Below are positions 22,910 through 46,597 of a DNA stretch of 64,000 nt, one piece after another. This stretch comes from an uncultured delta proteobacterium (GTDB lineage: Bacteria > Myxococcota > Myxococcia > Myxococcales > Myxococcaceae), in contig CAWCKH010000005.1 in assembly GCA_963796055.1 (NCBI GenBank), forward strand, positions 52,779 through 116,778, written 5' to 3'. The translations under genes and the position numbers were made by a program. Each line of letters begins with the position of its first letter. Position 1 is the stretch's first letter. The notes below the pieces were generated by a model. That model was not told the DNA's origin. It did no database searches and saw only the letters and a list, made by a program, of their open reading frames with translations.

Positions 22910-23051
22910 TCTTGGAAAGTCCCGACAGGCTAGCAGAGAGGCGAACGCGTTGACCGTCGCACACTCGTCTCCCGGGTGCACCGTAACCCCGCGAGACGCA
23001 AGGTCGTTTGCGCGGTGTCGGGACACAGGGCTAGACCCGGGGGCCCAGGCC

Positions 23052-25097: not shown

Positions 25098-25116
25098 GCC
25101 TGGTCGCTGAGCCGGC

Positions 25117-27261: not shown

Positions 27262-28565
27262 CAGACGGCCTCCAGAACCAGTGCCGCGCCGAGCCCGCCG
27301 GCCGCGCAGACGGTGCAGAGGGCAGTGCTCTTGCCGCTGCGGGCGAGCGCATCGAGTGCCTGCATGACGATGCGGGCTCCGGTGGCGCCGAAGGGGTGGC
27401 CGAGGGCGATGGATCCGCCGTGGATGTTGAGGCGCGCCGGGTCCACCTCGCCCAGCGGCGCCGAGCGGCCCAGCTTCCTGGCGAACTCCGGGCTGGCGAA
27501 GGCCTGGAGGTTGCTGGCCACCTGCGCGGCGAAGGCCTCGTGCATCTCGACCAGGTCGATGTCCGCCAGGCGCATCCCCGCCCGGTCGAGCGCCACCGGC
27601 GCGGCGTAGGCCGGTCCCTGGAGGAGCTGATCGGCCGGGTCCGTCGCGGCGTAGGCGAAGGCGCGCAGCGCCCCCAGCGGCCGGAGCCCCAGCGCCCTGG
27701 CCCGGTCCTCGCGCATCACCAGCAGCGCGGCCGCGCCGTCGGTCAGGGGCGAGCTGTTTCCGGCAGTGACCGAGCCGTGCGCCTTGTCGAACACCGGCTT
27801 GAGCTTCGAGAGCGCCTCGAGCGAGGTGTCGGGACGGATGATGTCGTCCGTGGTCCCGGTGGTGGTGTACGCCGGGGGCACGGGGACGTGCATCACCTGG
27901 GCATCGAACACGCCGGCCTTCCAGGCCGCGGCGGCGCGCTGGTGCGAGGCAAGCGCGATCTCGTCCTGCCAGGTGCGCGAGATCCGGTTCTCCTTGGCCA
28001 TCTTCTCCGCGCTCTGCCCCATGGTGAGGCCGGTGGAGTACTCGGCGATCGCGGGTGGAACCGGGACCAGATCCCCGGGGTGGACGCCAGCGAAGGCGCG
28101 GAGGCGGTCCGGCAGCGAGCGCGCGCGGCTGGCCTTCACCAGCGCGCGGGAGAGCGGGCGGCTGGTGAAGATTGGCACGTCGCTCATCGACTCGGTGCCA
28201 CCGGCGATGGCCACCTGGCTCACCCCGAGGGCCATGGCGGAGGCGACGTCGGTGAACGCCTGGATGGAGGTGGCGCAGGCGCGGGAGACGGTGTGGGCCT
28301 CGAGTCCCCTCGGCAGCGCCGAGGCGAGGCCGACCTCGCGGGCGATGCTCGGAGCCAGCAGCGTGGGGATGGCCTGGCCGAAGACGATCTGATCGATCTC
28401 CACGGGGTCGACGTCCGCGCGTTCGACGAGCTCCCGGACCACCGTCGCTCCGAGGTCGAGAGAGGTGAGAGAGCCGAAGACGCCGCCGGCCTTGACGAAG
28501 GGGGTCCGGAGCCCCTTCACCACGACGGCGCGCGACGTGCCGGGTTGACCGAGCAGCTGCGCCAT
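27261..28565 (-). CDS. fadI: 3-ketoacyl-CoA thiolase (acetyl-CoA C-acyltransferase)
   Basis: 434 aa. Thiolase active-site regions (VSRACATSIQAF, NIHGGSIALGHPFGATGARI, CAAGGLGAALVLE). Its stop overlaps the fadJ start by 1 nt. Confidence 0.92.
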   Translation of the reverse strand: MAQLLGQPGTSRAVVVKGLRTPFVKAGGVFGSLTSLDLGATVVRELVERADVDPVEIDQIVFGQAIPTLLAPSIAREVGLASALPRGLEAHTVSRACATSIQAFTDVASAMALGVSQVAIAGGTESMSDVPIFTSRPLSRALVKASRARSLPDRLRAFAGVHPGDLVPVPPAIAEYSTGLTMGQSAEKMAKENRISRTWQDEIALASHQRAAAAWKAGVFDAQVMHVPVPPAYTTTGTTDDIIRPDTSLEALSKLKPVFDKAHGSVTAGNSSPLTDGAAALLVMREDRARALGLRPLGALRAFAYAATDPADQLLQGPAYAAPVALDRAGMRLADIDLVEMHEAFAAQVASNLQAFASPEFARKLGRSAPLGEVDPARLNIHGGSIALGHPFGATGARIVMQALDALARSGKSTALCTVCAAGGLGAALVLEAV

Positions 28566-28672
28566 GACGCGGCGTTCCAGCAGAGACTCACTCGGGCGTC
28601 AATCGGCGGTCCGGGCCTTCGGGGCGCGAGCTACGGTCGGCTCGTTCCGCCGAAGCCCTGAACTCAGGCGGT

Positions 28673-29641
28673 TCACGCCGCGCGCGCGGCCGCCGATTCG
28701 TCCCGCATCACCTCGAGCGTCTTCCGGATCCCCTCGTTGTACGAGGTCTTCTTCACCGGCCCGAGGAGCTTCTGGAGCGCCGAGTCGTCCATGACCACCG
28801 GGTTCGTGTGGAGGTAGCTCATCTCCACCAGCTCGCGCATCAGCGGATTGAAAAGCCCCATCACCCGGAGCGTGTTCTTGCCGGCGACCCGGAACTTCGG
28901 CGTCTTGCCGGCTGCGGCGAACACCCTGGTCACGAACTCCCGCTGGGAGATTGTCCCGGAGCCGCCGAGGTGCCACCAGCGGCCGTATGCCTCCGGCCGG
29001 TCCGCCAGGTCGAGCAGCACCGGGCCGACGTCCGGCACGAAGACGAACTCGTGCGGCGTGTCGATGGGGCCGATCAGGTTGGCCGTTCCGCCATGGAGCG
29101 CGGCGACGAAAGCGCTGTGAAGGAAGCTCTTGTCGATGCCCGGTCCGTAGAAGTCCGGGAGCCGGAGGATGGTTCCGCGGATCTTCCCCGCCGCGTCGGC
29201 TTCGAGGAGGAGGTCCTCCTGTTCCTTGCGCATCCGGCCCTTGAAGGTGTGCGGCTCGCGCGGGTGGTCCTCCGCAACGCGCGCGGTCCTCGGCATGCCG
29301 TACGGGTACACCGTGCCCACGAGCAGGACGCGCTGTACGCCCTCGGCGATCGCGCCGTCGAGCGTCTGCCGCATCACCACCGGGTGCTGCTCGAAGTGGT
29401 GGTACGGAACGCCCACCAGGTGGACGAGGGTGTCGAGGCCGCGCACGGCAGCCCGGACCGACGCGGCGTCCTCTGGATTCCAGACGACCCGCTCGACACC
29501 GGGCATGTCCCCGAAGCTCGCCTCGAGCGCGCCAGCCGACCGCCCGATGACCCGGAAGGGGGTGCGCCGGTCCGTGAGCGCCTGCCCCACGCTCCGGCCA
29601 ATCGCTCCCGCCGCACCCACCAACCCGATTCGCTCCACCAT
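28673..29641 (-). CDS. NAD-dependent epimerase/dehydratase-family (extended SDR) protein
   Basis: 322 aa from ATG 29641 (MVERIGLVGAAGAIGRSV contains the Rossmann GxxGxxG). The ORF-track start 29776 is an extension. Confidence 0.8.
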   Translation of the reverse strand: MVERIGLVGAAGAIGRSVGQALTDRRTPFRVIGRSAGALEASFGDMPGVERVVWNPEDAASVRAAVRGLDTLVHLVGVPYHHFEQHPVVMRQTLDGAIAEGVQRVLLVGTVYPYGMPRTARVAEDHPREPHTFKGRMRKEQEDLLLEADAAGKIRGTILRLPDFYGPGIDKSFLHSAFVAALHGGTANLIGPIDTPHEFVFVPDVGPVLLDLADRPEAYGRWWHLGGSGTISQREFVTRVFAAAGKTPKFRVAGKNTLRVMGLFNPLMRELVEMSYLHTNPVVMDDSALQKLLGPVKKTSYNEGIRKTLEVMRDESAAARAA

Positions 29642-30287
29642 GACCGCCTCCTTAACGGCGGCGCGGCGGCAACGCGAGAGAACCGAGCTCCGCGAACGGA
29701 TTCTCGACGCGGCGCGGGACATCGTTCGGCGCGAGGGATTCGGCGCGCTGACGGTCCGGAAGATCGCCGACGCCATCGAGTACGCGCCCGGAACGCTCTA
29801 CCTCTACTTCGAGAACCGCGACGCCATCGCCCGCGAGCTCTCCTTCGAGGGGTTCCGGAAGCTCCTGGAGGCCTTCGCGCCGGCCGAGACGCTCGCCGAC
29901 CCGCTCGCCCGTCTCGAAGCCATCGGACGCGCCTACGTGAAGTTCGGGATGGAGCACCCCGAGACCTACCGGCTCATCTTCATGGAGGACCCGCAGCTCA
30001 CCACCGCGGTGTTCAAGGCAGCGGGCGATGACCCCGGGCAGCGCGCGTATCGGGCGCTCCTCGATCCGCTCGACGAGCTCCGCAAGGCCGGGCGACTGCG
30101 GCGGGGCGCCGACGTGCAGCCGCTCGCCGACACGCTCTGGGCCTTGGTGCACGGCATCGTCAGCCTGAAGCTCACCTGCCCCGGCTTTCCGGTGACACCG
30201 GTGGAGCCGCTTCTGGACACCGCCCTGCGGACCTTCCTCGACGGGCTGGTCCGCCTTGCCCCGTCTAGGGCGTCGGCGGCGCGGTGA
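29640..30287 (+). CDS. TetR/AcrR-family transcriptional regulator
   Basis: 215 aa from ATG 29640. N-terminal HTH (RERILDAARDIVRREGFGALTVRKIADAIEYAPGTLYLYFENRD). Its ATG shares two bases with the ATG of the divergent SDR gene (CATG at 29639-29642). Confidence 0.85.
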   Translation: MTASLTAARRQRERTELRERILDAARDIVRREGFGALTVRKIADAIEYAPGTLYLYFENRDAIARELSFEGFRKLLEAFAPAETLADPLARLEAIGRAYVKFGMEHPETYRLIFMEDPQLTTAVFKAAGDDPGQRAYRALLDPLDELRKAGRLRRGADVQPLADTLWALVHGIVSLKLTCPGFPVTPVEPLLDTALRTFLDGLVRLAPSRASAAR

Positions 30288-31308
30288 CGTGACAGCCCAG
30301 CCGGTGCACGGTCTCCACCAGGTGCTTCGCCGCGTCGGGTGACGTGGGCGGCAGGATGCCGTGCCCGAGGTTGAAGATGTGCCCGACGGGCCCGGCGCGG
30401 CGGAGGATGTCCGCCACCCGCTGCTCCAGCTCGGCCGGCGGGAGAAAGAGCGCCAGAGGATCCAGGTTGCCCTGGAGCGCCACGTCCGGTCCGGCGAGCG
30501 CGCGGGCCTGGTCGATCTCGATGCGCCAGTCGCAGCCGAGCACGTCGGCCCCGGTCCTCCGGAGCAGGGGCAGGTGCGTGGACATCGCGGTGCCGAAGAC
30601 GATCACCGGCACGCCCTTCGCCTGGAGCGCCTGCACCATCCGGGTGAGGTACGGGAGGCTGAACGTCTCGAAGTCGCGCGGGCTCAGCTCGCCGCCCCAG
30701 CTGTCGAAGATCTGGGCGATCCGCGCGCCCGCCTCGACCTGCATCTCGAGATACGGGATGAGCGTGCGGGTGAGCCGGTCGAAGAGCGCGTGGGCGAGCT
30801 TCGGCTGCTCGAAGAGGAGCCGCTTGATGAGGATGAAGCTCTTGGAGCCGCCGCCCTCGACCATGTAGGCGGCGAGGGTGAACGGCGCGCCGGCGAAGCC
30901 GATGACCGGCACCGCGTCGTGCAGCGCCGCCCGCGTACGGCGGATCGCCTCGGCGACGAAGCCGGTCTTCTCCACCGGATCCGGCACCACCAGCTTCTCG
31001 ACGTCGGCAGTGGTCCGCAGCGGCGAGGGGAAGTGCGGCCCGCGGTCGCCGAGCTCGAGCTCCATCCCCATCGCCTCGGTGGGGATGAGGATGTCGGAGA
31101 AGATGATCGCCGCGTCGACGCCCAGCCGGCGGACCGGCTGCACCGTCACCTCGGCGGCGAGGTCCGGCGTCTTGCACAGCGGGAGGAAGTCGATCTTCTC
31201 GCGAACCGAGCGGTACTCGGGCAGGTAGCGCCCGGCCTGGCGCATGATCCACACCGGGGTCACGTCCACGGGCTGCCGGCGCGCGGCGCGCAGAATCCGA
31301 TCGTTCAC
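30265..31308 (-). CDS. hemE: uroporphyrinogen decarboxylase
   Basis: 347 aa. N-terminal signature PVWIMRQAGRYLPEYR. Full-length URO-D fold. Confidence 0.93.
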   Translation of the reverse strand: MNDRILRAARRQPVDVTPVWIMRQAGRYLPEYRSVREKIDFLPLCKTPDLAAEVTVQPVRRLGVDAAIIFSDILIPTEAMGMELELGDRGPHFPSPLRTTADVEKLVVPDPVEKTGFVAEAIRRTRAALHDAVPVIGFAGAPFTLAAYMVEGGGSKSFILIKRLLFEQPKLAHALFDRLTRTLIPYLEMQVEAGARIAQIFDSWGGELSPRDFETFSLPYLTRMVQALQAKGVPVIVFGTAMSTHLPLLRRTGADVLGCDWRIEIDQARALAGPDVALQGNLDPLALFLPPAELEQRVADILRRAGPVGHIFNLGHGILPPTSPDAAKHLVETVHRLGCHVTAPPTP

Positions 31309-31374
31309 GTCCGACGGACGTAGCAGGAACGACCGAACCTGGCGAGGGGCTCGGGCGGCGGCCAGCGGCGCGAT

Positions 31375-31788
31375 TCAGGCACCGTCGCCGCGGAGGACGG
31401 GCTTGAGATCGAGGACCGGCGTCCCGTCGATCGCCTCGAGCGGGCCCACCCGGATCCGCCGCCCCTCCACCGTGAGGACCCGGACCCGGTGCAGCCCGAT
31501 GGGGTTCGGACGGTCCGGTGAGCGGGTGGAGAACACGCCGGTGATCGGCCGCGCCGGATCGCTCCGGGGATGGACCTCGAGCACCGCGCGGTCGGCCTGG
31601 TGGAGCCAGGTCACCAGGAAGACCTCGTCGCCCGGCGTGAGCCCCGAGGCCGCCGGGAGAACCTCGGGCCGAAGCTCGATCCAGGCATCCGGGCCGCCCT
31701 CCCTCCCCTGCATCGGCGCGCGCGCCCGGTCCCGCAGCTCGGAGTGGATGGTGCCAACCGGGCGGAGCTGAAGGTCCACCCCTCTCAC
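31375..31788 (-). CDS. trmO: tRNA (m6t6A37) methyltransferase TrmO/TsaA family protein
   Basis: About 137 aa. LRPVGTIHSE ... FSTRSPDRPNPIGLHRVRVL ... IDGTPVLDLKP is typical of the YaeB/TrmO family. GTG start at 31788 overlaps the upstream stop (GTGA). GTG 31779 is an alternative start. Confidence 0.75.
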   Translation of the reverse strand: MRGVDLQLRPVGTIHSELRDRARAPMQGREGGPDAWIELRPEVLPAASGLTPGDEVFLVTWLHQADRAVLEVHPRSDPARPITGVFSTRSPDRPNPIGLHRVRVLTVEGRRIRVGPLEAIDGTPVLDLKPVLRGDGA

Positions 31789-32600
31789 CGTCGCCCGGCG
31801 AAGAGCGCGTTGAGCTCCGGGTAGGGCATCGCCCCCTCGAGCATGGCCTCGTAGCCGCGTCCGTCGAGGAACTGCCGGGCGGCGCGCCGGGTCAGACCAT
31901 GGACGGCGCTGGAGATCCCCGAGCCCGCGCTCACCCGTCGCACGCCGAGTGCCCCGAGCTCTGCCACCGAAGGCAGCCGTGCCCACACCAGGACGTTCAG
32001 CGGGAGCGGGACACCGGCCACGATCTCTCGGATCGATGCCGGCTCCACGACGGCGGGCACGAAGAGTCCGTCGGCGCCGGCGTCGCGGTACTTCCGCCCG
32101 CGGGCGATGCTCTCCTCGACGGCGCGCTCGGGCGGGGTGAGCGCTTTCAGGTAAACGTCGGTGCGGGCGTTCACGAACAGATCCACTCCGGCGCGGGCGG
32201 CCCCGCGCTTGGCGGCCGCGATCCGCTCGCAGAGGACCTCGGGGCGGTCCGTCCCGTCCTCGAGGTTGATGCCCACCGCGCCGGCGCTGGCGAGGGCGAA
32301 GGCGTTGTCGGCGACGGCCGCGGGATCGGAGGCGTAGCCCGCTTCCATGTCGACGCTCAGGGGTACCGAGACGACCCGGGCGATCTCGGCGACGGCGGTG
32401 AGGAGGACGGAGGCCGGGAGCGCGCCCCCGTCGGCGTACCCGCGCGACCAGGCCAGACCGGCGCTGGTGGTGGCGATGGCCTGTGCGCCACAGGACTCGA
32501 TGACGCGGGCGCTGCCTGCGTCCCAGGCATTGGGAAGCAAGAGGGGGGTCTTTCCGTGGTGCAGTTCTCTGAAGCGCGTGGCCGCAGTGCGGGTGTCCAT
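31785..32600 (-). CDS. isocitrate lyase / PEP mutase-family enzyme
   Basis: 271 aa from ATG 32600 (MDTRTAATRFRELH). LLLPNAWDAGSARV ... ATTSAGLAWSRGYADG ... SVDMEAGY ... GINLEDG are the hallmarks of the ICL/PEPM superfamily. The exact activity is unknown. Confidence 0.8.
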   Translation of the reverse strand: MDTRTAATRFRELHHGKTPLLLPNAWDAGSARVIESCGAQAIATTSAGLAWSRGYADGGALPASVLLTAVAEIARVVSVPLSVDMEAGYASDPAAVADNAFALASAGAVGINLEDGTDRPEVLCERIAAAKRGAARAGVDLFVNARTDVYLKALTPPERAVEESIARGRKYRDAGADGLFVPAVVEPASIREIVAGVPLPLNVLVWARLPSVAELGALGVRRVSAGSGISSAVHGLTRRAARQFLDGRGYEAMLEGAMPYPELNALFAGRR

Positions 32601-32674
32601 GGTGGGGTCTCCGAAGATGTAGACTTGTCCATAGCGAGCGGGCGCAGAGGAGGCACAGTTCGCGAGCGTCGTCC

Positions 32675-32704
32675 TTGACACAGCTGGAACCGGGACCGTA
32701 CAAG
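32675..32704 (+). promoter_or_regulatory. candidate sigma-70 promoter of the tRNA-Val/tRNA-Asp pair
   Basis: TTGACA (32675-32680), then a 17-18 nt spacer, then GTACAAG. It lies about 30 nt upstream of tRNA-Val. Confidence 0.4.
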
Positions 32705-32736
32705 CGCCCCCGTCGTCGAGGAGCGGAGCCGGGACC

Positions 32737-32808
32737 GGGCGGGTAGCTCAGCGGTAGAGCATCGCCCTTACAAGGCGAGGGTCACAGGTTCGATCCCTGT
32801 TCCGCCCA
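32737..32808 (+). tRNA. tRNA-Val (anticodon TAC)
   Basis: Cloverleaf folded by hand: acceptor GGGCGGG/TCCGCCC, D arm GCTC-AGCGGTA-GAGC, anticodon arm TCGCC-CTTACAA-GGCGA, T arm ACAGG-TTCGATC-CCTGT. CCA is not encoded. Confidence 0.9.
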
Positions 32809-32826
32809 ATCGAAGACCGTCGTACT

Positions 32827-32900
32827 GGGGAGTTAGTTCAGCTGGTTAGAACGCCGGCCTGTCACGCCGGAGGTCACGGGTTCAAGTCCCGTACTCCTCG
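32827..32900 (+). tRNA. tRNA-Asp (anticodon GTC)
   Basis: Acceptor GGGGAGT/ACTCCTC, D arm GTTC-AGCTGGTTA-GAAC, anticodon arm CCGGC-CTGTCAC-GCCGG, T arm ACGGG-TTCAAGT-CCCGT. Confidence 0.9.
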
Positions 32901-32901
32901 C
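32859..32901 (+). repeat. direct repeat, left copy (3' part of tRNA-Asp)
   Basis: ctgtcacgccggaggtcacgggttcaagtcccgtactcctcgc, identical to 35934-35976. Confidence 0.95.
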
Positions 32902-33008
32902 TTCGTAAGAGCCCGGATGGACCGCGGAATTCGCTGCTGTCTCCGGGCTCCGCTTCACCCTCCGCTGGCGATGCCAGAAAGGGTCCCAGAAAACCGTTCG
33001 CGGATCCG

Positions 33009-33185
33009 CTGAGCGAGTGGGGCGAACTGCTGACGGTGAGGGAGGTGGCAGGACGGCTGCGCCTCCATCCCTCCACTGTTTACGGGCTCTGCGAGCGAGG
33101 CGAACTAGGGCACGTGCGCGTCAGCAACGCACTTCGGGTGCGTCCAGTCGACCTCGAGACGTTCGTACGGACTAGTTGTCGGTAG
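33009..33185 (+). CDS. excisionase/AlpA-like helix-turn-helix protein (start uncertain)
   Basis: The frame reads ...ELLTVREVAGRLRLHPSTVYGLCERGELGHVRVSNALRVRPVDLETFV, which is the excisionase-family HTH pattern. There is no ATG. Candidate starts are CTG 33009 or GTG 33036. It is shorter than 60 aa and so is absent from the ORF track. Confidence 0.45.
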   Translation: MSEWGELLTVREVAGRLRLHPSTVYGLCERGELGHVRVSNALRVRPVDLETFVRTSCR

Positions 33186-33530
33186 CGTCCGCAGCGGGAA
33201 CGCGAACACACCGCGACTCTTCGAAGGCTGAACTGTGCCCTCACGGGAGCCACAGTCCAGCCTGACACTGGAGTAGGGCCGCCCTGTCCTAGTTTCAGCG
33301 GCTTCGTCCGAGCTGGTCGCGTCCTCGTGTCGCGGTTTCCGACCCGGTCGAGCACACCAGACGCACACACGCCGCCAACCCCCCGGACGACCGCGGTCAT
33401 CCGAGCTTCCTCCTGAGCCCCCCGGCGCACAGGTGAGCTGCCCTAGACGGCGTCCACGTGACTGGACGGCGCGTGCAGCGCGGACCCGTCGTCGTCTCCT
33501 GGCGCAGCGGCTGCACGAGGGCCTGCGGCA

Positions 33531-34985
33531 GTGGCGCGGCGGGCGGAGACGGCGGGGGACAGGGAGCGCGAGACCGTTCTCGGGCAAGAGGGGAAGCGGG
33601 CGCTCGGGGCAGTCGAGCATCGCCGCGACGTCGAGGGCACCGTCCTGCACCAGGCCGTCCGAGGCCATCTCGCCAGCTTTCTCGCCGGGTCGGCCGACCG
33701 GGGCGGTCTTCCGCGCTTCGTCGAGCGCGACTTTGCCCGGAACCTCGCCTGCGGAGTGCCGGCGTACGGCTTCGCCCGGCTGGCCTGCGCCGGATGCCGA
33801 GCCGAAGTGCTGGTCCCCTTCTCCTGCAAGTCACGCGGAGTGTGCCCCTCCTGCAACGCCCGCCGGGCGCACGACACCGCCATCCATCTGGTGGAGCGCG
33901 TGCTTCCCCGGGCGCCGTACCGCCAGTGGACGCTCTCGCTGCCCATGCCGCTGCGCTTCTCTCTGGCCAGGGATTCCCGGCTCCTCTCCGAGGTGCTGGG
34001 CCTCTTCGTCCGGGCGCTCTTCGCCTTCCAGCGGCGGACGGCCCGGCGGCTCGGGGTGTCCCGGCCACTCACCGGCGCTGTGGCCTTCGTCCAGCGCTTC
34101 GGCTCGGCGCTCCAGCTGACGCCCCACTTCCACCTCCTCGTCCCCGAGGCCGTCTTCGAGGAGGTGCACGAGGCGGAGCTGCGCCTGCACCCCTTGCCTC
34201 GGCCCACCGACGCCGAGGTGGAGACGCTCGCCGTCACCGTGGCCCGGCGCACCCTCGCGCTGCGGCGTGCGCGCGGCATCCTCGAGGAGGAGGCCGTCCC
34301 GGACGCAGCACTCGATGTCCTGCAGCTCGAAGGCATCCAGGTGCCGCGGAGCGGGCCGCGTCCTCCCGCCCGCCGGCCGGGCCGCCGCTGCGCCTTCGTC
34401 GAGGGCTTCTCCCTCCACGCCGACACCTGGCTTCACGAAAACGACGTCACGGGCCTCGAGCGGCTCTGCAACTACGGCGCCCGCGGGCCCCTGTCGCTCG
34501 AGCGGCTGTCGGCCTTGCCCGACGGACGGCTCGCCTACCGGATGAAGCGGCCCTCTCCGGCAGGACAGACGCACCTCCTGCTGTCTCCGCTGGCCTTCCT
34601 CCGCCGGGTGGCCGCGCTCGTCCCACCCCCCAGGGCCAACCTCGTGCGTTACTTCGGCGTCTTCGCCCCCAACGCCAGGGTGCGGCCCCGCGTCGTGCCT
34701 GCGCCTCCTTCCCCTGCGCCGCTGGCCGAGGCAGCTTCCTGCCCCGTCACGCCGGAGCCTCTCCGCCCCCGGCCGCCTCGCCGCCCCATCCCCTGGGCCG
34801 AGCTCCTCCGGCGGACCTTCCAGTCCGACGTCCTCACCTGCCCGCGCTGCGGCGGCACGCGCCGCGTGGTGGCCGTCGTTCTCCGTTCCGCCACCGCCCG
34901 GGCCATCCTGGAGCATCTGCGGCTTCCCTCCAGGCCCCTCCCCCTCGCTCCAGCCGCCTCTCCGCCCCAGCTCGGCCTCTGGTGA
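33531..34985 (+). CDS. IS91-family (HUH / Y2 rolling-circle) transposase
   Basis: 484 aa, GTG start. Zinc-binding N-terminus (CAGCRAEVLVPFSCKSRGVCPSCNARR), HUH motif in TPHFHLLVP, C-terminal LVRYFGVFAPN tyrosine motif, and a terminal CPRCGG zinc ribbon. Confidence 0.8.
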   Translation: MARRAETAGDRERETVLGQEGKRALGAVEHRRDVEGTVLHQAVRGHLASFLAGSADRGGLPRFVERDFARNLACGVPAYGFARLACAGCRAEVLVPFSCKSRGVCPSCNARRAHDTAIHLVERVLPRAPYRQWTLSLPMPLRFSLARDSRLLSEVLGLFVRALFAFQRRTARRLGVSRPLTGAVAFVQRFGSALQLTPHFHLLVPEAVFEEVHEAELRLHPLPRPTDAEVETLAVTVARRTLALRRARGILEEEAVPDAALDVLQLEGIQVPRSGPRPPARRPGRRCAFVEGFSLHADTWLHENDVTGLERLCNYGARGPLSLERLSALPDGRLAYRMKRPSPAGQTHLLLSPLAFLRRVAALVPPPRANLVRYFGVFAPNARVRPRVVPAPPSPAPLAEAASCPVTPEPLRPRPPRRPIPWAELLRRTFQSDVLTCPRCGGTRRVVAVVLRSATARAILEHLRLPSRPLPLAPAASPPQLGLW

Positions 34986-35268
34986 GTGCCGTCCGAGCTT
35001 CGAGACCGCCCTACCCTGACGACGGGCCACGTACTGCTCTACCCCCAGCAGCGGTGAGCACTCCTTCCGAGCGCCTCCTGCCTTCGTCGTCCTCCCCGTC
35101 GCCGGCCGGACGACCCGGTCCGTACCTGGCTTCCGCCGCGAAAAACCCGTTTGTTCTTCCTTGGATCATATGCGACTCCCTCGTGTCGCGTTTGCTTAGT
35201 AGATTAGGACACCTAATTCATGTTTTAGGAGCAAATAAGTTGCGTGTTGCCAAAGAGGGAGGGTCGCC

Positions 35269-35748
35269 ATGAGCCTGAATTCGAGAGCGTTGTTGCTGGT
35301 GCTTTGTTTACTGGGGGCAACGGAAGTCGTCGGTCAGGAAGCCGTCACCGCACTTGACCGTACTCTTTCGAAGACCCATATGCGACAGGACACCACTTCC
35401 GTCGCGATCGCCGACGCGCCAGTGCAAGCATTCGCTCCGACGACGATTCAGTGTGGAAAGCAGAGTTGCACGGTGAGGGTTGAGGTCTCCAGCCAGTTTT
35501 TCAACGTCACTTCCGGGAACGCCGTTAGACTGCATGTCAAAGCGGATGGCGCCCCATTCCCAGTCACAGGATTTGAAATCGATGGCGGAATCAACAGACC
35601 GGTGGCGCATCTCACCACGGTGTCATCACTGAAGAGCGATCTCAGTCCAGGACCACACACCATTTCGGTGGACTTTGATATGCGAACGCCGGGTGGCAAA
35701 GCGGAGGCGTCCATTCGTATATTGACCATTCAAGTGTTTACACCTTGA
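35269..35748 (+). CDS. orphan secreted protein encoded on the low-GC insert
   Basis: 159 aa. AGAGGGAGGG RBS, signal peptide MSLNSRALLLVLCLLGATEVVGQ, beta-strand-rich body with no motif I recognise. GC is about 50% by hand count, against more than 70% in the flanks. Confidence 0.7.
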   Translation: MSLNSRALLLVLCLLGATEVVGQEAVTALDRTLSKTHMRQDTTSVAIADAPVQAFAPTTIQCGKQSCTVRVEVSSQFFNVTSGNAVRLHVKADGAPFPVTGFEIDGGINRPVAHLTTVSSLKSDLSPGPHTISVDFDMRTPGGKAEASIRILTIQVFTP

Positions 35749-35760
35749 ACAATCCAGAAA

Positions 35761-35805
35761 TCGCAGTGCTGCCACCTCGCGCACGGTCAGCAGCGCGGGG
35801 GACAT
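35761..35805 (-). pseudogene. 3'-truncated second copy of the excisionase-like gene
   Basis: The minus strand reads ATG TCC CCC GCG CTG CTG ACC GTG CGC GAG GTG GCA GCA CTG CG (MSPALLTVREVAAL). This matches the left-end gene (CTG CTG ACG GTG AGG GAG GTG GCA). Homology stops exactly where the low-GC DNA begins. Confidence 0.5.
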
Positions 35806-35933
35806 TAGGGGGCCACGGCGAGCGTTCCTAGCCCGTCCAGCGGGTCCATCCGGTCGATGGTCCGTGCCGCCGTTCTGAAGAATAGCAACAGGTTGGACGC
35901 TGTGAGCAGGCTCTGGATGATAATTAGAATCAA

Positions 35934-35976
35934 CTGTCACGCCGGAGGTCACGGGTTCAAGTCCCGTACTCCTCGC
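35934..35976 (+). repeat. direct repeat, right copy (orphan 3' fragment of tRNA-Asp)
   Basis: Perfect 43-nt copy of 32859-32901. The upstream sequence (gataattagaatcaa) has no tRNA 5' half. Confidence 0.95.
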
Positions 35977-35980
35977 AACG

Positions 35981-36277
35981 TCACTCAGCGGGAATCTCGG
36001 GAGATGCGCCGCCAGTCGCTGCAGGTGCTGACCGGCGCGCTGGCCACTCCCGGTACGCGTTGGGGTCCTCGGTGAGCACGCCGGTCTGGTCGTCACCGTA
36101 GAAGAAACGCTCGACCACCTTCCCGTCCTGCCACTCCGTCCGCACGCAGGCGAGCCAATAACTAGGGTCCGTCGATCCGTACTCATCCAGGACCACCTCC
36201 AGCGACTGCCTGGCGGCGTCGAGCGCGGTTGCCCAGCCGGAGACGGTGCAGGTCCAGTTGGCAGGGTGCTCGGACAC
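35981..36277 (-). CDS. hypothetical protein
   Basis: 98-aa ORF (MSEHPANWTCTVSGWATALDAARQSLEVVLDEY...) immediately outside the right repeat. Codon usage is high-GC. No recognisable motif. Confidence 0.35.
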   Translation of the reverse strand: MSEHPANWTCTVSGWATALDAARQSLEVVLDEYGSTDPSYWLACVRTEWQDGKVVERFFYGDDQTGVLTEDPNAYREWPARRSAPAATGGASPEIPAE

Positions 36278-36466
36278 GACGTCCTGGACCGTACACGTCG
36301 CGCCTGACGCCTGACCGTCTAACCCGGCGGGCCCACGGGACTGCTGGGGAGCGTCGGCGTTACCGTCCAGTCGCCTGTCCGGCTCCTCTTCGTGACCCGC
36401 TCAGGCGTAGGTTCCGGCCGGGGCGACGGGCAGCGCTGCCGGTGGGTTCAGGAAGGGAGGACGCCG

Positions 36467-37154
36467 ATGGCGAGCCAGGAGTTCCAGGTCTCCGTACCGG
36501 CGGGAGATGCCGTTCTGGAGGGAACGCTGGGCATCCCGGAGCGACCACGCGGGGTCGTGCTGTTCGCTCATGCCAGCGGCAGCAATCGCCACAGTCCGCG
36601 CAACCGCTACGTGGCGGGCTACCTGCAGAGCCACGGACTCGCCACCCTGCTCCTGGACCTGCTGACCACCGAGGAGGAAGAAACGGAGAGGTGGATCCGC
36701 CACCGTCGGTTCGCCGAGGACGAGACCGAACTGTCGCGACGTCACCTCGATCTCGAGGTGCGGACGTTCGCCGATCGTCTCATCGCCGCGACCGGATGGT
36801 TGGCGCAGAATGAGCAGACGCTGGGCATCTCCTATTTCGGCGCGAGTACCGGCGCCGCCGCGGTGCTCCTGGCGGCGGCTCGGACCCCGTATCCGGTGGA
36901 GGCGGTCGTTTCGCGGGGTGGGGGTCCGGAGCTCGCCGCGGATCATCTCCGCCAGGTCCGCGCGCCGACACTTCTCATCGTCGGGGGCGACGACCAACCC
37001 GTCATCGAGAGGAACCGCGAGGCGCTGGGGGACCTGGGCTCGAGCCACCCACCTCTTCGAGGAACCCGGCGCGCTGGACGCCGTGGCTCACCTCGCCACC
37101 GCCTGGTACGGGCAGCATCTGGTCGCACCCGGCCCCCGCACCCACGACGCCTAG
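36467..37154 (+). pseudogene. dienelactone-hydrolase-like alpha/beta hydrolase, disrupted
   Basis: ATG 36467 (GGAAGGGAGG RBS). VVLFAHASGSNRHSPRN ... FGASTGAAAVLLAAA (nucleophile Ser) ... VVSRGGGPELA ... PTLLIVGGDD lie in one frame. The conserved end ATHLFEEPGALDAVAHLATAWY (catalytic His) is in another frame ending at 37154. The junction is near 37035-37045 and several expected residues are missing. Confidence 0.6.
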
Positions 37155-38338
37155 TGAAGGGTCCTGGCAGCGCCGGTCCCCTGAGCCGGGGCGCCTGACT
37201 GACCCGGCTTCTCCAGGCGGCAGACGAATCCCCACCCACCGCCAAGCTCGCTCAGCGCGAGCACCAGCTCGTTCTTCCCCTTCTGCAGGGGCAGGTACAC
37301 CGCGTCGTTCTCCGGACTGACGATGCCCAGGAACCGCGGGTCGCGGAAGGCCTGGGCGCTACGCCCCCGGTAGAGGATCCTCCCGTTGAGGAACACGCTG
37401 ACGTCGTCGCTGTAGCCGAGGGCCAGCTTCTTCACCTCCTCGCGGTCGGAGGTGATGGTGGTCCGGGCGTAGACGACCTTCATCCCCGGCTGGGGCTGCA
37501 GCCGGGTCGAGAAGTCGGCCTGGAAGCTGACCCTGGGGTGGGGAGCGGAGTGGTAACGGTAGATGGCCACCAGTCCGGGCGGCTCGGCTTTCACGGCCTT
37601 CCACTGGATCGTGGCCAGCTCCGACGCGGAGAGCGGGCGCTCCAGGTCGCGTTCCAGGGCGTCATAGGTGGGCGACAAGCTCCACTTCGTCAGGGTGCCG
37701 GGAGGTGTCGGCGGCAGGTGTCGCTCCCACGGCACGTCGGGCGTCGGCCGGAACTCGAAGTTGGAGAAGTACGTCTCGCCGATGAGCACCGCCAGCGCCA
37801 CCTGGCCCCTCTGCAGACCTGACTTCAGATCGCCCATGACCAGCGCTGGCTTCTCCATGTCCTTCACGAACAGCTTGGCCCGCGCTCCCGCCACCTCCAG
37901 GCGCAGGTGGAACCAGACGTCCCTGGGGATGTCGACCGCGCCGGTGAAGCCCGGCCCGTTGTAGAGCTGCCAGTTGAGGCCGGTGTTGAGCACCGGCGTG
38001 TACTGCATGGCGTCGGCCTGCCCGGACTGATGCTGGCGGAGGTAGACCCACTCGGCGTTGGCGCCGTCGGATGCAATCCGGAACTGGATGCCGAAGAACC
38101 CGCGAGCGGCCGGCGTCGAGACGTCGACGTCGATGACCCCGTCACGCATCTCGAGCCCCTTCACCGTCGCCGCGCCCCCGTCCAAAAGGATGGCCTTGCG
38201 ACCCTGATGCTCGGTCACCTTGGCCTGTCCCTCGAGCTCCCAGCGTGGCGAGTCGGGTGGAACAAGGACCGCCTCGGGCGCGGCCGTCACCCGCGAGCAG
38301 ACGAGACAGACACCGAGGACGACGACGGGACGGAGCAT
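37151..38338 (-). CDS. secreted protein with concanavalin/LamG-like (DUF1080-like) N-terminal domain
   Basis: 395 aa from ATG 38338. Signal peptide MLRPVVVLGVCLVCSRVTAAP. The N-terminal roughly 200 aa look like a jelly-roll lectin/glucanase fold (GFFGIQFRI ... WFHLRLEV ... LFV). The 790-aa ORF-track entry is a read-through. Confidence 0.65.
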   Translation of the reverse strand: MLRPVVVLGVCLVCSRVTAAPEAVLVPPDSPRWELEGQAKVTEHQGRKAILLDGGAATVKGLEMRDGVIDVDVSTPAARGFFGIQFRIASDGANAEWVYLRQHQSGQADAMQYTPVLNTGLNWQLYNGPGFTGAVDIPRDVWFHLRLEVAGARAKLFVKDMEKPALVMGDLKSGLQRGQVALAVLIGETYFSNFEFRPTPDVPWERHLPPTPPGTLTKWSLSPTYDALERDLERPLSASELATIQWKAVKAEPPGLVAIYRYHSAPHPRVSFQADFSTRLQPQPGMKVVYARTTITSDREEVKKLALGYSDDVSVFLNGRILYRGRSAQAFRDPRFLGIVSPENDAVYLPLQKGKNELVLALSELGGGWGFVCRLEKPGQSGAPAQGTGAARTLH

Positions 38339-38619
38339 GGCAGGCCCTCCAGCCGGTGCCGCTACCTCCGCGTCTTCCGTCCGATTGCGCGCGTGCAGGC
38401 AACCGCGCGGATGCTGCAGCCAGCCCGCGGTTCGCACCGAGGCGGGCCCTTGACGGCCGGGATGTTCGCCGAGGTGCGGACCATGGAGGAGATCGTTGGG
38501 CGCTTCGCGGCCTGGCGATCCTCCTACCCTGCCGTCGGGTGGCACAGATCGAGGCGCACGCGGCGCTCCGGGTCGAGGGCGAGTAATGCCATCCGACGCG
38601 CGAACCAGGGTGACGACGG

Positions 38620-39567
38620 TCAACGACTGCCCTGCAGCGCTCGAGCGCTCACCGCTGCATCGCGCGCCGCCGAGGAACCTGGCTCGCCCGCATCGAGCGG
38701 CTCGCGCCAGGCGATGTCCAGACCCTTGCGCCGGCTCACGAGCCAGAGCGCGGCGGTCGCAAGCCCGATGATCGCGATCGCCAGCCCGCCGCCTTCGATG
38801 CTCGGCGCCTGCCCCGTCCAGGCGACCGGTCCGCGCTGGACCACGCTCACCAGCTGGTGAGCCTTCCCCGCGCCGAGGTCCACGATGCCGAGCGTGTCCT
38901 GCATCCAGTCCCACGCCGCGTGCCAGCCGATGGCCCAGCCGAGCGATCCCGTGACGAAGCGGGCCAGGATCAGCATCAGGGTCGCGATTGCTGCCGAGAC
39001 GACGAACCCGACGTCCACGCGCTGCGCCGGATTCGCCAGATGGAGCAGGCCGAAGACGACCCCAGTGCCGAGCGTCGCGGCCCACAGCGGGAGCCGCTCC
39101 CCCAGGTCTTGCAGGAAGACGCCGCGCAGGAGGAGCTCCTCCATCACCCCGATGCCCATCGCGGCAAGGAGCGCACCGACCACGGCCGAGAGCTTCCATG
39201 GCTCGCCGACCCAGGTCGGCTCGACCCAGCCGAGTTGCCACTCCACGCAGAACAGCGCACCCAGCATCAGCACGCCGACGGCGAATCCCAGGACCAGCGC
39301 GCGTGCCAACCGCCGGGACCAGGTGAGCCCCACCCATGACCAGGGCCGGTGATCCATCCGACTCCTGAGCATCCGGGTTCCAAGGATGAACGCGCCCCCA
39401 CCGACGAGGGTGACCACAAGTCCCAGAACCCATCTGGGGACGATCGCCCGGAGCGCATGACCGAGGATGCTGGCGGCCGCGCCGCAGACGGCGTACAGGA
39501 ACAGGTACGAGACGAGCCTCCATCCGAGCCGGAGGCGCCCTTCACCGTCGATCAGCCAGCGACGCAT
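38620..39567 (-). CDS. CPBP-family intramembrane glutamic endopeptidase (CAAX/Abi-type)
   Basis: 315 aa, multi-span. Catalytic motifs EELLLRG and FGLLH, plus a downstream H (WHAAWD). Confidence 0.85.
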   Translation of the reverse strand: MRRWLIDGEGRLRLGWRLVSYLFLYAVCGAAASILGHALRAIVPRWVLGLVVTLVGGGAFILGTRMLRSRMDHRPWSWVGLTWSRRLARALVLGFAVGVLMLGALFCVEWQLGWVEPTWVGEPWKLSAVVGALLAAMGIGVMEELLLRGVFLQDLGERLPLWAATLGTGVVFGLLHLANPAQRVDVGFVVSAAIATLMLILARFVTGSLGWAIGWHAAWDWMQDTLGIVDLGAGKAHQLVSVVQRGPVAWTGQAPSIEGGGLAIAIIGLATAALWLVSRRKGLDIAWREPLDAGEPGSSAARDAAVSARALQGSR

Positions 39568-39757
39568 CCAGAGCCTCAGGGAGGAGATGGTGCGCCTGCG
39601 TACGCACCTTCGCCGCTCCCATTTCCCGGTCCCGCATCGGTTCGTGCCGAGTTGCAGCGGGCGGTCGGCGCCGTGCCGCGGGCGTCTGCCCCCGCAAATC
39701 TTGCGTCAGCGCGCGCGTGCTCGCAGCGAGCCTCGCGCGGTGCGACGATGACCGGCC

Positions 39758-41713
39758 ATGACGGATCCCCTCGCTCCGTTCTTCCTCGGCGCCTACGGGG
39801 AGAACAACGACTTCTTCGAGAAGACGCTCCTCGAGCTGGTGCGGGACCACGTCTTCTGGCGGCGCAACTTCCATCCCGAGGACGAGCCGCCCATCGGCAC
39901 CCACGACCAGTACACCCGCGCATACCTCGACGGGCTGGCCCGGACGCGGCACGAGCTCCACCAGCTCACCGCCGCGCTGAAGCGCTCGGTGCCCTTCTTC
40001 CACCCACGGTACCTCGGGCACATGGTCTCCGACCTCCTGATGCCCGGGCTCATCGCCCAGCTGGTCACCACCCTCTACAACCCGAACAACATCGTCGAGG
40101 ACGTCGCCCCCATCACCGTCCAGCTGGAGCTCGAGGTGGGCCGGCAGCTGGCGCGGATGCTCGGGTTCGGCGTCGACCCGGCCCACGAGCCCTGCGCGCT
40201 GGGGCACCTCACCTCCGGCGGCACCGTGGCCAACGACGAGGCGCTCTGGCTGGCGCGCTCGGCGCGGCTCTACCCGCTCGCCCTCCGGGACGCCTCACAG
40301 GCCTCCGGCATCTCGGTGCCGGACGTCCCGGTGCGCGCTTCCAGCACCGACCTCGAGCTCCTCGCGCTCGGGGCCGGCGAGGTGCTCGCGCTCGCCCGCC
40401 GGGTATCCGCCTTCTGCTCCCGCGAGCCGCCCGGCCCCGAGCTCTTCGCTGCGCTCACCGCTGCCCGGGTGGAGGAGACCGGCCTTGCTGCCTTCGCCGC
40501 CCGACATCCGGCCCTGGAGCGGATGGTGGTGGTGGTGCCCGCCACCGCGCATTACTCCTGGCACAAGGCGATGAGCCTCCTCGGGCTCGGCGGGGGAAAC
40601 CTGGTCGAGGTGCCGGTGAACCAGGCCCGGCTCGACGGTGCCGAGCTCGCCCCGGCGCTGGAGGCGCTCCGGAAGGACGGGCGGCCGGTGCTGGCGGTGG
40701 TCGGGGTGTACGGCACCACCGAGTTCGGCACGCTCGACTCGATCCACGAGCTGATCGAGGTCCGGCGCCGCTTCCCCGGCTTCTGGCTGCACGTCGACGC
40801 GGCCTGGGGCGGATACCTTCCCACGCTCTTCCGCGACCGGAAGGGACAGCTTCTCCCCCGCGAAGCGGTGCGCGAGGGCTTCCACTACTTTCCGTCCGAG
40901 CGCGTCCACCGCGCCACCGCGGCGCTGGCCGAGGCCGACTCGGTGACCGTGGACCCGCACAAGCTCGGCTTCGTGCCCTTTGGCGCCGGAGCCCTGGTGG
41001 TGCGCGACCGGCGCGTCCTGGATCTGGTGCAGCAGGAGGCGCCGTACGTCTTCACCTCGCCCCCGGACGAGGACGAGCGCCGCTACCGGAAGCTCGGCCG
41101 GTACATCCTCGAGGGAAGCAAGCCCGGCGCGGCCGCCGCGGCCTGCTACGTGAACCACCGCGTGCTGCCGCTGGACCGCGACCACTTCGGGCGGCTCCTC
41201 GCCCGCTCGGTGCAGACCTGTGAGCGGCTGGTGGACCGCGTTCCAGGTCTCCAGCAGGAGCTGGCAGCCTGGGTCCGTCTGACGATTCCCTTCGAGCCCG
41301 ATTGCAACCTGGTCTGTCTCGCCTTCAACCCCAAGGGGAACCGCTCGCTGAAGGCGGCGAACGCGTTCGGTCGCCGCCTCTTCGAGACCATCGACGTGCG
41401 CCCGGATCGACCCGTGCAGCTCAAGGAATTCTTCGGCTCGTCCACCACCGTGCCGCTGGACCACTTCGGTACCGACGAGCTCCAGCGCGTCGCCGCCGAG
41501 CTGCAGTTGGAGCTCGCCCGGCCCGACGACAGCGGACTGTTCCTGCTCCGGCACACGCTGATGAACCCGTGGCTGCAGACCTCTCCCGGGCCCGACGAGC
41601 CGAGTTACGTGGAGGCCTACTGCCACTTCCTCTCCCGGCAGATCCGGGCCCTGCTGGACGCGAATCCGATCGCCCAGACCCTCCCGGCGAAAGTGCGCTC
41701 CGACGGGCTGTGA
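39758..41713 (+). CDS. pyridoxal-phosphate-dependent (group II) amino-acid decarboxylase, tyrosine-decarboxylase-like
   Basis: 651 aa. HFHPED / HPRYLGHM N-terminal region, GHLTSGGTVANDEALWLAR, PLP-lysine motif VDPHKLGFVPFGAGALVV. Confidence 0.85.
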   Translation: MTDPLAPFFLGAYGENNDFFEKTLLELVRDHVFWRRNFHPEDEPPIGTHDQYTRAYLDGLARTRHELHQLTAALKRSVPFFHPRYLGHMVSDLLMPGLIAQLVTTLYNPNNIVEDVAPITVQLELEVGRQLARMLGFGVDPAHEPCALGHLTSGGTVANDEALWLARSARLYPLALRDASQASGISVPDVPVRASSTDLELLALGAGEVLALARRVSAFCSREPPGPELFAALTAARVEETGLAAFAARHPALERMVVVVPATAHYSWHKAMSLLGLGGGNLVEVPVNQARLDGAELAPALEALRKDGRPVLAVVGVYGTTEFGTLDSIHELIEVRRRFPGFWLHVDAAWGGYLPTLFRDRKGQLLPREAVREGFHYFPSERVHRATAALAEADSVTVDPHKLGFVPFGAGALVVRDRRVLDLVQQEAPYVFTSPPDEDERRYRKLGRYILEGSKPGAAAAACYVNHRVLPLDRDHFGRLLARSVQTCERLVDRVPGLQQELAAWVRLTIPFEPDCNLVCLAFNPKGNRSLKAANAFGRRLFETIDVRPDRPVQLKEFFGSSTTVPLDHFGTDELQRVAAELQLELARPDDSGLFLLRHTLMNPWLQTSPGPDEPSYVEAYCHFLSRQIRALLDANPIAQTLPAKVRSDGL

Positions 41714-41728
41714 GCGGCAGCGCCGGGA

Positions 41729-44317: not shown

Positions 44318-44342
44318 CCTGGGCGCGCAGGGTACTCCTCCG

Positions 44343-44711
44343 TCAGAAGCTCAGCGAGGCCGCCCCGGCCAGCAGTTGCTCGTGGATGACGCTCGAGCCG
44401 GCGATCTCCGTGCCCTCGATGAGGTCTTGCTGGGTGTACCCGCGCGACTTCACGCAGGGCGTGCAGGCCACGAGGCGGCCGCCCCTGCGGAGGAAGTCCT
44501 TGACCAGCGCGGCGAGGGGATCGAGCGGCGGGACGTGGGTCGTGTCGATCGCCCGGCGGCGCGCGAGGTCCACCGCCGAGCTGGTCAGAAACACGGTCAC
44601 CTTCCTGAATCCGGTGGTCATCCCGCCGTTGGCGATGGTGAAGCCGACCGAGGACAGCTCGTGATCGGTTCCCTTCGTCATCAACACCACCAGCTCACGT
44701 TGCTCGGACAT
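44343..44711 (-). CDS. DsrE/DsrF-like sulfur-relay family protein
   Basis: 122 aa. [11 protein letters not shown] ... [10 protein letters not shown] ... [13 protein letters not shown] fits the DsrE-fold pattern with a conserved Cys. It is 25 nt upstream of the LuxR-family gene (GAGGAG RBS). Confidence 0.65.
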
Positions 44712-44824
44712 GGGGCACCCCTGAAGTTTGGATGTTGCAGGGGGGCAGCGTGTCGGCGGTGAGGTCCGGGCACATGGGGAGGATTCCCCATCTTTCGAGG
44801 CGCCACGGGCCCGTCAGCCCCGGC

Positions 44825-45343: not shown

Positions 45344-45415
45344 GACGGGTTTGCCACCTCAGATGCCTCCGGGGCATCCTCGGCGACGACAAATGACTGT
45401 TCTTGGAGGAGAACG

Positions 45416-46342: not shown

Positions 46343-46393
46343 AGGCCTCCCCGCCGGCGACCCCTTTTCTCCCGGCCCTGGCTCTCAGCTGGC

Positions 46394-46597
46394 ATGACCA
46401 TCGAAGGTGCGGTCCGCGTCCTCGCCGGAAGCTTCGTCCTGCTCGGGGCACTGCTCTCGTGGTGGGTGAGCCCCTGGTGGCTTCTCCTCGACGTGTTCGT
46501 CGGGCTCAACCTCATCCAGTCCGTCTTCACTGGCTTCTGCCCGGCGGAAATGATCTTCCGGCGCCTCGGTCTCCGGACCGCAACCGGCCGAGCCTGA
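46394..46597 (+). CDS. DUF2892 (YgaP-like) small membrane protein
   Basis: 67 aa with two TM helices. The LNLIQSVFTGFCP motif is characteristic of the rhodanese-associated YgaP-type membrane domain. Confidence 0.7.
   Translation: MTIEGAVRVLAGSFVLLGALLSWWVSPWWLLLDVFVGLNLIQSVFTGFCPAEMIFRRLGLRTATGRA

Follow-up and report, generated by a model that had tools for sequence, protein, structure and literature searches.

A repeat-bounded islet at a myxobacterial tRNA-Asp gene is probably a decayed integrative element that was later invaded by an IS91/ISCR-family insertion sequence

For tyrosine integrases that target tRNA genes, a standard geometry of attL and attR is a repeat that begins at the anticodon loop and covers the remainder of the tRNA up to its 3' end. 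In the myxobacteria, phage Mx8 integrates at two neighboring sites, attB1 and attB2 (PMC6070905; PMC11610982), which lie in the tandem tRNA-Asp genes trnD1 and trnD2 of M. xanthus (PMC13454183). Insertion sequences (ISs) of the IS91 family have distinct oriIS and terIS ends, insert next to CTTG or GTTC without target duplication, and can carry DNA beyond terIS by one-ended transposition (PMC13181058). Here we describe an islet of 3.1 kb that follows a tRNA-Asp gene in 64 kb of DNA from an uncultured member of the Myxococcaceae (GenBank assembly GCA_963796055.1, contig CAWCKH010000005.1; this whole stretch is called the window). The islet is bounded by 43-bp direct repeats and carries a gene of the excisionase family, a gene for a transposase with an HUH motif, and no integrase gene. 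In our reading it is most probably a decayed integrative element that has lost its integrase and was subsequently invaded by an IS of the IS91/ISCR family. Both components belong to already known kinds, and the combination of a tRNA hot spot, island decay, and the landing of an IS is a textbook outcome.

Repeats at the tRNA-Asp gene and the parts of the islet

ARAGORN identifies two tRNA genes in the window, and Rfam concurs that there is no third. The first is tRNA-Val(TAC) (32737–32808, plus strand; 71.4 bits with Rfam), which is the upstream partner of the second, an intact tRNA-Asp(GTC) (32827–32901, plus strand; 71.5 bits). The last 43 nucleotides of tRNA-Asp, starting at the anticodon loop (CTGTCAC), form the left repeat and attL core (32859–32901, plus strand), and recur as a perfect 43-mer at 35934–35976 on the same strand. 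This match extends to 48 nucleotides if two mismatches are allowed. The right copy, the attR core, corresponds to a displaced tRNA-Asp 3' end without the tRNA 5' half, and the intact tRNA is found on the left side only. A 30-nucleotide piece of the repeat occurs exactly twice in the window and not once in 100 shuffles. An initial annotation made from the letters alone had noted both the perfect duplication lacking a 5' half and the lack of an integrase open reading frame (ORF) between the copies. ARAGORN, the repeat search, and the shuffles agree with the first of these observations, and the searches for an integrase described below agree with the second.

None of twenty further ORFs of at least 40 amino acids, taken from any frame of 32882–37048, matches an integrase, recombinase, or DDE family of Pfam at E≤1. 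Similarly, a tblastn search of the whole window with the Int and Uoi proteins of Mx8 gave no match better than E=0.17. One match from these queries, at E=0.3, was rejected because it corresponds to the tRNA-encoded peptide ARSTGLEPV. Because the required integrase gene is missing from the interval, we class the feature as a remnant rather than an autonomous element.

Immediately inside attL is a 125-bp stretch (32902–33026) that we interpret as an element arm (P' arm) and that holds the 11-mer CCGGATGGACC at 32913–32923. The arm beside attR (P arm; 35806–35933, 128 bp) contains the same 11-mer in inverted orientation, GGTCCATCCGG, at 35843–35853, followed by a near copy, GATGGTCC, at 35857–35864. 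By our own estimate about 0.01 matches of this kind are expected by chance between the arms, the shuffles having covered 8-mers only; these sequences are candidate arm-type repeats.

The left arm is followed by a helix-turn-helix (HTH) gene of the excisionase family (33027–33185, plus strand), whose mechanically called ORF begins with a GTG at 33036. ORF 33036–33185 matches HTH_17 (PF12728; 4e-9) and the NCBIfam model TIGR01764 'excise' (34.7 bits, cut-off 28.8), which bears out an earlier description of an excisionase-like HTH ORF preceding the transposase gene. There is no ATG, GTG, or TTG start upstream of the first helix, and given this missing canonical start the gene may be decaying. With 186 bp between its end and the left end of the IS, it is located outside of the IS. 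The DNA between these two points (33186–33370) holds overlapping ORFs without a Pfam match, carries no recognizable gene, and shows no homology to other copies of the IS by DNA comparison.

On the other side of the IS, a segment of 594 bp (35169–35762, plus strand) stands out by its composition, with a G+C content of 51–57%. It contains an ORF of 159 amino acids (35269–35748) that is well-formed, has a signal-peptide-like N-terminus, and matches no family in Pfam, NCBIfam, or PHROG. The predicted protein belongs to a small family of approximately 160-residue proteins (84 representative clusters), and a single-sequence AlphaFold model of it is all-beta with a pLDDT of 54, too poor for a fold search. 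The sequence CTTGAAC, which combines CTTG with the complement of GTTC, is present at 35745–35751, just past the stop of this ORF and 12–18 nucleotides from the right boundary of the segment.

Between this segment and the right arm is what may be the 5' stump of another HTH_17-type gene (35764–35805, minus strand; MSPALLTVREVAAL), consisting of the first 14 codons, from an ATG start up to a break at about 35763. The stump forms an inverted repeat with the beginning of the left HTH gene (26 of 31 nucleotides) and is too short for a test with a hidden Markov model (HMM), so that a truncated second gene of this type is a possible interpretation. The islet as a whole is a mosaic in G+C content, with 62–66% in the left arm, 72–78% in the IS, 51–57% in the putative cargo segment, and 56–60% in the right arm, as compared with about 72% in the flanks.

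The insertion sequence and its transposase

The IS occupies approximately 1.8 kb of the islet (33371–35168, plus strand). It begins with GCCGCCAACCCCCCGG at its left, terIS-side end and closes with ...GTTTGTTCTTCCTTGGA(TC) at its right, oriIS-side end. Its gene tnpA (33531–34985, plus strand) is intact and encodes an HUH transposase of 484 amino acids, which matches Y2_Tnp (PF04986; 8e-26, 91.6 bits, cut-off 20.9) and Zn_Tnp_IS91 (PF14319; 2e-16, 60.1 bits, cut-off 26.3). With both scores above the gathering thresholds, the HMM searches support the assignment to the IS91/Y2 transposases that had first been made by eye. In contrast, the protein scores below the NCBIfam cut-offs for ISCR_clade_Ia (293 bits, cut-off 925) and IS91 (93 bits, cut-off 125), and it appears to be a divergent member of the superfamily that falls outside those named clades.

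An alignment of 30 relatives shows C86, C89, C105, C108, H199, and Y315 (in CNYGAR) to be invariant and H201 to be nearly so, in agreement with the zinc-binding cysteines and HUH motif proposed in the initial annotation. That annotation had also taken RYFG as the tyrosine motif. This part does not hold, because the tyrosine in question, Y374, is phenylalanine in most of the relatives and is therefore not a conserved catalytic residue; Y315 is the one tyrosine conserved throughout. The transposase is about 39% identical to IS91-family transposases carried on thousands of resistance plasmids, for example beside rmtC and blaNDM-1. Closer to the window, a scan of one genome per species revealed 29 loci that encode relatives of the transposase, nearly all in metagenome-assembled genomes of Myxococcota and often several in one genome.

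These relatives allow both ends of the IS to be mapped. DNA comparison shows homology to the window ending at 35165–35168 in locus after locus, and the right ends of the window IS and 13 other copies, when aligned, have the terminus ...CGAAAACCCGGGTTGTTCTTCCTTGGA(TC) conserved and beyond it flanks that are unrelated. All 14 copies share the 3' end ...GTTGTTCTTCCTTGGA, the flanks diverging directly after ...CTTGGA. All copies terminate in GTTCTTCCTTGGA, whose CTTG may belong either to the IS or to the target. The left end was placed near 33371 by comparison with two other loci (L031 and L030 among the DNA stretches from other genomes and contigs, which we number L001 to L064), where the IS is 91% and 85% identical, respectively. 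Many relatives lie alone on contigs of 1.8–2.5 kb, as is consistent with an IS of about 1.8 kb. The window IS is flanked by CACACAC on the left and TCATATG on the right, with no target duplication. A 15-nucleotide near-repeat (33323–33337, CCTCGTGTCGCGGTT; 35179–35193, CCTCGTGTCGCGTTT) is found on either side of the IS, 34 and 11 nucleotides away from it, and is probably due to chance, as about 0.5 such pairs are expected per 5 kb.

In several loci (L001, L006, L010, L012–L017, and L027) most copies of the IS are truncated at the 5' side and retain the conserved 3' (oriIS-side) end. No shared motif, as pseudo-ter sites would predict, was found at the break points of these truncated copies.

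The mapped ends separate the IS from the 43-bp repeats, which lie 470 bp outside its left end and 766 bp outside its right end. Since the IS91 mechanism also yields no 43-bp repeat derived from a tRNA, the transposase appears not to have made the repeats. The tRNA-Asp 3' end is absent from all other loci that carry relatives of the IS, only two of which have any tRNA gene (Leu and Phe), and neither an HTH_17 gene nor a tRNA-Asp fragment occurs near the other IS copies in L001–L031. The IS is complete, self-contained, and apparently functional, and it is present in multiple copies elsewhere. It is a previously uncatalogued IS of the IS91/ISCR type that is widespread in Myxococcota, and in annotation the 43-bp repeats should not be credited to its HUH transposase.

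Origin and possible mobility of the islet

Three related loci (L034, L035, and L064) were reached through homologues of the PEP-mutase gene that flanks the tRNA pair in the window, and in all three the tRNA-Val/tRNA-Asp pair adjoins this gene. L035 is approximately 86% identical to the window and is syntenic with 22005–32908 and again with 37213–49388. Between its tRNA-Asp and the point where synteny resumes, L035 carries 1.3 kb (8396–9697) with a DUF7452 gene; it has a single tRNA-Asp, no islet, and no second repeat. In L064 (1–2230), tRNA-Asp is followed by a DUF1835 gene and further ORFs of lower G+C content, and in the 2.2 kb downstream of this one tRNA-Asp there is neither an islet nor a second repeat or fragment. 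The contig of L034 stops at the tRNA. Because L035 and L064 carry other DNA downstream of the same tRNA-Asp, and synteny with L035 breaks at 32908 and 37213, the region 32902–37212 appears to be a variable hot spot that comprises the islet and a further 1.2 kb.

This further DNA (35977–37212) is absent from the syntenic locus in L035 and contains two genes. An ORF of 98 amino acids (35981–36277, minus strand), whose stop lies 4 nucleotides past the right repeat, matches no Pfam, NCBIfam, or PHROG family, and a dienelactone-hydrolase-like gene (36392–37198) matches the Pfam family DLH. These genes may have been left behind by another integration event at this hot spot.

We propose the following course of events for the islet. 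A genomic islet or prophage-like element would have entered the 3' half of tRNA-Asp by site-specific recombination of the tyrosine-integrase type. Its attP would have included a copy of the part of the tRNA that starts at the anticodon loop and reaches the 3' end, so that integration would have rebuilt the tRNA at attL and left the displaced 43 nucleotides at the far end as attR. The integrase and the rest of the interior would subsequently have been lost, presumably by deletion, leaving the two arms with their common 11-mer, the excisionase-family HTH gene, the 14 codons of a possible second HTH gene, and perhaps the low-G+C cargo gene. The IS91/ISCR-family IS would have arrived independently by rolling-circle transposition and would have had no part in making the repeats. 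Excision, if any, would produce a circle with the junction ...AATTAGAATCAA-(43 bp)-TTCGTAAGAGCC... and a restored site reading ...(tRNA-Asp)-AACGTCACTCAGC....

The position of the HTH gene just inside attL argues for this account, as does the location of the repeats, the HTH gene, and the arm repeats, all of which are outside the IS. Two possibilities had been raised in the initial annotation, a decayed island later invaded by an IS and an unusual architecture pairing an Xis-like protein with a Y2 transposase. The mapped ends, the multiple copies of the IS, and the lack of the islet in relatives favor the former, and the latter finds no counterpart in that no such pairing occurs in L001–L031.

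A further copy of the islet was found in a 34.6-kb metagenome contig (ENA ERZ25039551; L032), where it is 98.4% identical to the window over 32850–35976. This copy (2623–5745 of the contig) includes both repeats and is located between a tRNA-Asn gene and a hemerythrin gene, that is, at a site other than tRNA-Asp. To its left are an M28-like peptidase gene, tRNA-Asn, and a 28-nucleotide spacer, after which the tRNA-Asp sequence begins at the anticodon stem. To its right, the repeat, here with two mismatches, is followed by approximately 20 nucleotides (GGAGGCCGGCGTGAGGTTGT) and then by the hemerythrin gene. No complete tRNA-Asp is present in the stretch of the contig that was examined. The HTH gene is 100% identical to that of the window and the 159-residue ORF is intact with three amino acid changes, and the transposase gene is broken by a one-nucleotide insertion, which causes a frameshift, and by a 136-bp deletion.

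Relatives of the hemerythrin gene allow the insertion point to be defined. They read ...ACGATC followed directly by AGCTGCTCAC, and L032 reads ...CTGATC, then the block, then TCAGCCTCAC, so that the block appears to be an insertion with a duplication of at most 2 bp. The trailer in L032 contains TGAGGTTG, which is found at an equal offset in the trailer of the native tRNA-Asp of L064, and this suggests that the donor was a tRNA-Val/tRNA-Asp locus carrying the islet. Recombination between att sites was considered as the mover of this block and rejected because the block retains both repeats and reaches beyond the repeat-bounded islet at either side. The block could have been moved by aberrant rolling-circle mobilization or by illegitimate joining of the ends of a linear fragment, or it could be an assembly artefact. 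The location of this copy indicates that scars of this kind can be relocated.

The differences between the two copies are unevenly distributed. There are 2 differences in the 692 positions of the arms and HTH gene and 36 in the 2392 positions of the IS and low-G+C segment, with one substitution in the 177 nucleotides at the left end and none in the 171 nucleotides of 35763–35933. The arms and HTH gene are thus four- to five-fold less diverged than the interior (Poisson p of about 0.01 by our calculation).

Several observations weigh against a decayed and inert island. The low divergence of the arms is a weak hint that they are still under constraint or retain function, and L032 shows the integrase-less form at more than one locus, which a purely dead scar does not predict. 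The exact empty site could not be reconstructed because the right flank is itself variable between genomes, 35977–37212 being unconserved in L035 and L064; the check for an empty site proposed in the initial annotation thus yielded two relatives without the islet at tRNA-Asp and no exact junction. In addition, the searches recovered no intact parent element that combines these arms with an integrase. Exact look-ups of the transposase, the 159-residue ORF, and the PEP mutase of the window returned no recorded protein. Protein-guided scans of viral contigs with the HTH protein and the 159-residue ORF recovered relatives at 31–43% identity, the nearest relatives of the HTH protein at 43%, and no parent element, and a tblastn search of phages with the HTH protein gave one weak match in a Clostridium phage. 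Used as exact patterns, the attR junction, the attL junction, and a 33-nucleotide core had no matches in viral contigs, nor had the attL/attP junction in metagenome contigs, and blastn of the islet against phage and plasmid collections returned tRNA-Asp matches only.

Some of these points would be accommodated if the islet were a live, integrase-less, cis-mobilizable (CIME- or satellite-like) element that is moved in trans by the integrase of a full-length relative or of an Mx8-type phage. The link to Mx8 is direct at the level of the attachment core. Positions 6444–6469 of Mx8, inside int, are the reverse complement of ACGGGTTCAAGTCCCGTACTCCTCGC and are identical at 26 of 26 nucleotides to the 3' end of tRNA-Asp. 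This identity falls within both repeats of the window, at 32876–32901 and 35951–35976, which would therefore offer two potential Mx8-type attB cores approximately 3 kb apart. Mx8 Int is said, in work from 1999 attributed to Magrini et al., to carry out low-level recombination between one attB site and another, and a duplicated core could affect both prophage integration and deletion at the locus. The 43-bp repeat exceeds the Mx8 core, its start being at the anticodon loop, and the window lacks Mx8-like genes, so that an integrase other than that of Mx8 most likely made it.

The complete core in both repeats, the use of two neighboring attB sites in the tandem tRNA-Asp genes of M. xanthus that has been reported for Mx8 (PMC6070905; PMC13454183), the 11-mer common to both arms, their low divergence together with that of the HTH gene, and the existence of a 98%-identical copy at another locus are all in line with mobilization in trans. 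However, the L032 copy is not at tRNA-Asp, and with both repeats and extra flanking bases it does not look like the product of recombination between att sites. Moreover, the window has no integrase, the Xis-like gene lacks a normal start codon, and no circular junction or tandem array was present in any collection scanned. On balance we consider an element live in this sense unlikely, at perhaps the same level as the broader idea that the islet is a still travelling unit with two Mx8-type cores, which has been copied as a block, in decayed form, to a site other than tRNA-Asp in another myxobacterial genome; this too we hold to be doubtful. If it were true, with either a phage or parent integrase acting in trans or the resident transposase acting on surrogate ends, then phage attachment sites would be moved to new places on the chromosome by the islet, itself a passenger.

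For the L032 copy alone, the latter route would mean that an IS91/ISCR-type transposase moved the block by an aberrant, one-ended-like rolling-circle event with surrogate ends. The duplication of at most 2 bp would fit such an event, and the left break in the donor is at GAAC, the bottom-strand GTTC that is the terIS cleavage tetranucleotide of IS801 and IS1294 (PMC13181058). The ends of the block also faintly resemble those of the IS (left, CAAC-CCGG; right, GGTTGTTC), and the neighboring hemerythrin module has GTTC and CTTGG at its boundaries in many contexts. Against this, one-ended transposition starts at the oriIS of the IS itself (35168) and would not carry 35169–35976, target bases supply part of the GTTC at the right junction, the 5'-truncated copies of the IS have no break-point motif in common, and the transposase gene in L032 is broken. 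We therefore regard movement by this route as quite improbable.

The hemerythrin module is an observation in its own right. It spans about 0.8 kb (L032:5738–6460; also L036 and L043–L061) and is present at 91–95% DNA identity in at least 15 contigs. Its homology always starts at the boundary between GTTC and TCGATA..., approximately 40 nucleotides upstream of the ATG. In the six contigs mapped downstream it ends with ...CGAACTTGG, approximately 65 nucleotides past the stop, and in others it diverges nearer to the stop. The flanks are unrelated, with at least five upstream and at least three downstream contexts. Because GTTC and CTTG are the cleavage and target tetranucleotides of the IS91 family, the module may be a non-autonomous rolling-circle passenger, and its GTTC/CTTGG boundaries hint that rolling-circle mobilization of small passengers may be common in the clade. 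In a soil contig from JGI (L054:1472–1618), an HTH_17 gene 49% identical to the Xis-like gene of the islet is located approximately 0.5 kb downstream of the module.

A different explanation for the right repeat is that this tRNA-Asp fragment goes back to an old duplication within the chromosome, as a degenerate form of a trnD1/trnD2 pair, and that the DNA in between is ordinary chromosome. A precedent exists in M. xanthus, where attB1 and attB2 are provided by tandem tRNA-Asp genes (PMC13454183), and the region downstream of tRNA-Asp is variable in any case. However, the two copies of the repeat are identical and their start coincides exactly with the anticodon loop, and the interior has an excisionase-type gene, arm repeats, and DNA of foreign composition, in a block that is also found elsewhere at 98% identity. 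The initial annotation had pointed to the same duplication with unrelated genes between the copies as a sign of such an origin. This arrangement was not seen in the related genomes, since neither L035, with its single tRNA-Asp, nor L064, in the 2.2 kb downstream of its tRNA-Asp, carries the fragment, and an old duplication is accordingly very unlikely.

The idea that the Xis-like HTH protein and the HUH transposase form a new tRNA-targeting element that itself made the repeats could appeal to the two genes standing side by side in the same orientation with no other recombinase present, but it is largely refuted by the mapped boundaries of the IS, which begins 186 bp downstream of the HTH gene and stops 766 bp before attR, and is scarcely credible given that other IS copies lack both the HTH gene and tRNA-Asp repeats, that the IS91 family makes no target duplications and inserts next to CTTG or GTTC (PMC13181058), and that the repeat geometry is that of tyrosine integrases.

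Comparison with known systems

Read as a decayed integrative element, the islet most closely resembles tRNA-linked genomic islands and CIME-type remnants. It has in common with them an intact tRNA at attL, a tRNA 3' fragment at attR, an excisionase-family gene near one end, a foreign composition, and its absence from the same tRNA gene in related genomes. It differs in that it contains no integrase, transfer, or replication genes, only about 1.3 kb of DNA outside the IS is left, and no intact parent was found.

In comparison with the attB1 and attB2 sites of Mx8 in the trnD genes of M. xanthus, the window has the same 26-nucleotide core and two neighboring potential attB sites. However, its repeat is 43 bp long, Mx8-like int, uoi, and phage genes are absent, and the second site is a fragment of a tRNA rather than a tRNA gene.

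The IS differs from described IS91/ISCR elements in the identity of only about 39% between its transposase and the plasmid-borne ISCR-type enzymes, in scores below the NCBIfam cut-offs, in a single invariant tyrosine, and in a host range that for the window IS is Myxococcota; it is known here from its sequence, and its transposition is predicted. In contrast, its overall organization is that of the family. The pair of Zn_Tnp_IS91 and Y2_Tnp domains, the HUH motif, and the conserved tyrosine are features found also in IS91, IS801, IS1294, and the ISCR elements of resistance plasmids. The two ends of the IS are unlike each other, and the end downstream of tnpA is strongly conserved and contains GTTC and CTTG. 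Like other members of the family, the IS has no visible target duplication and is present in multiple copies, many of which keep the ori-side end only.

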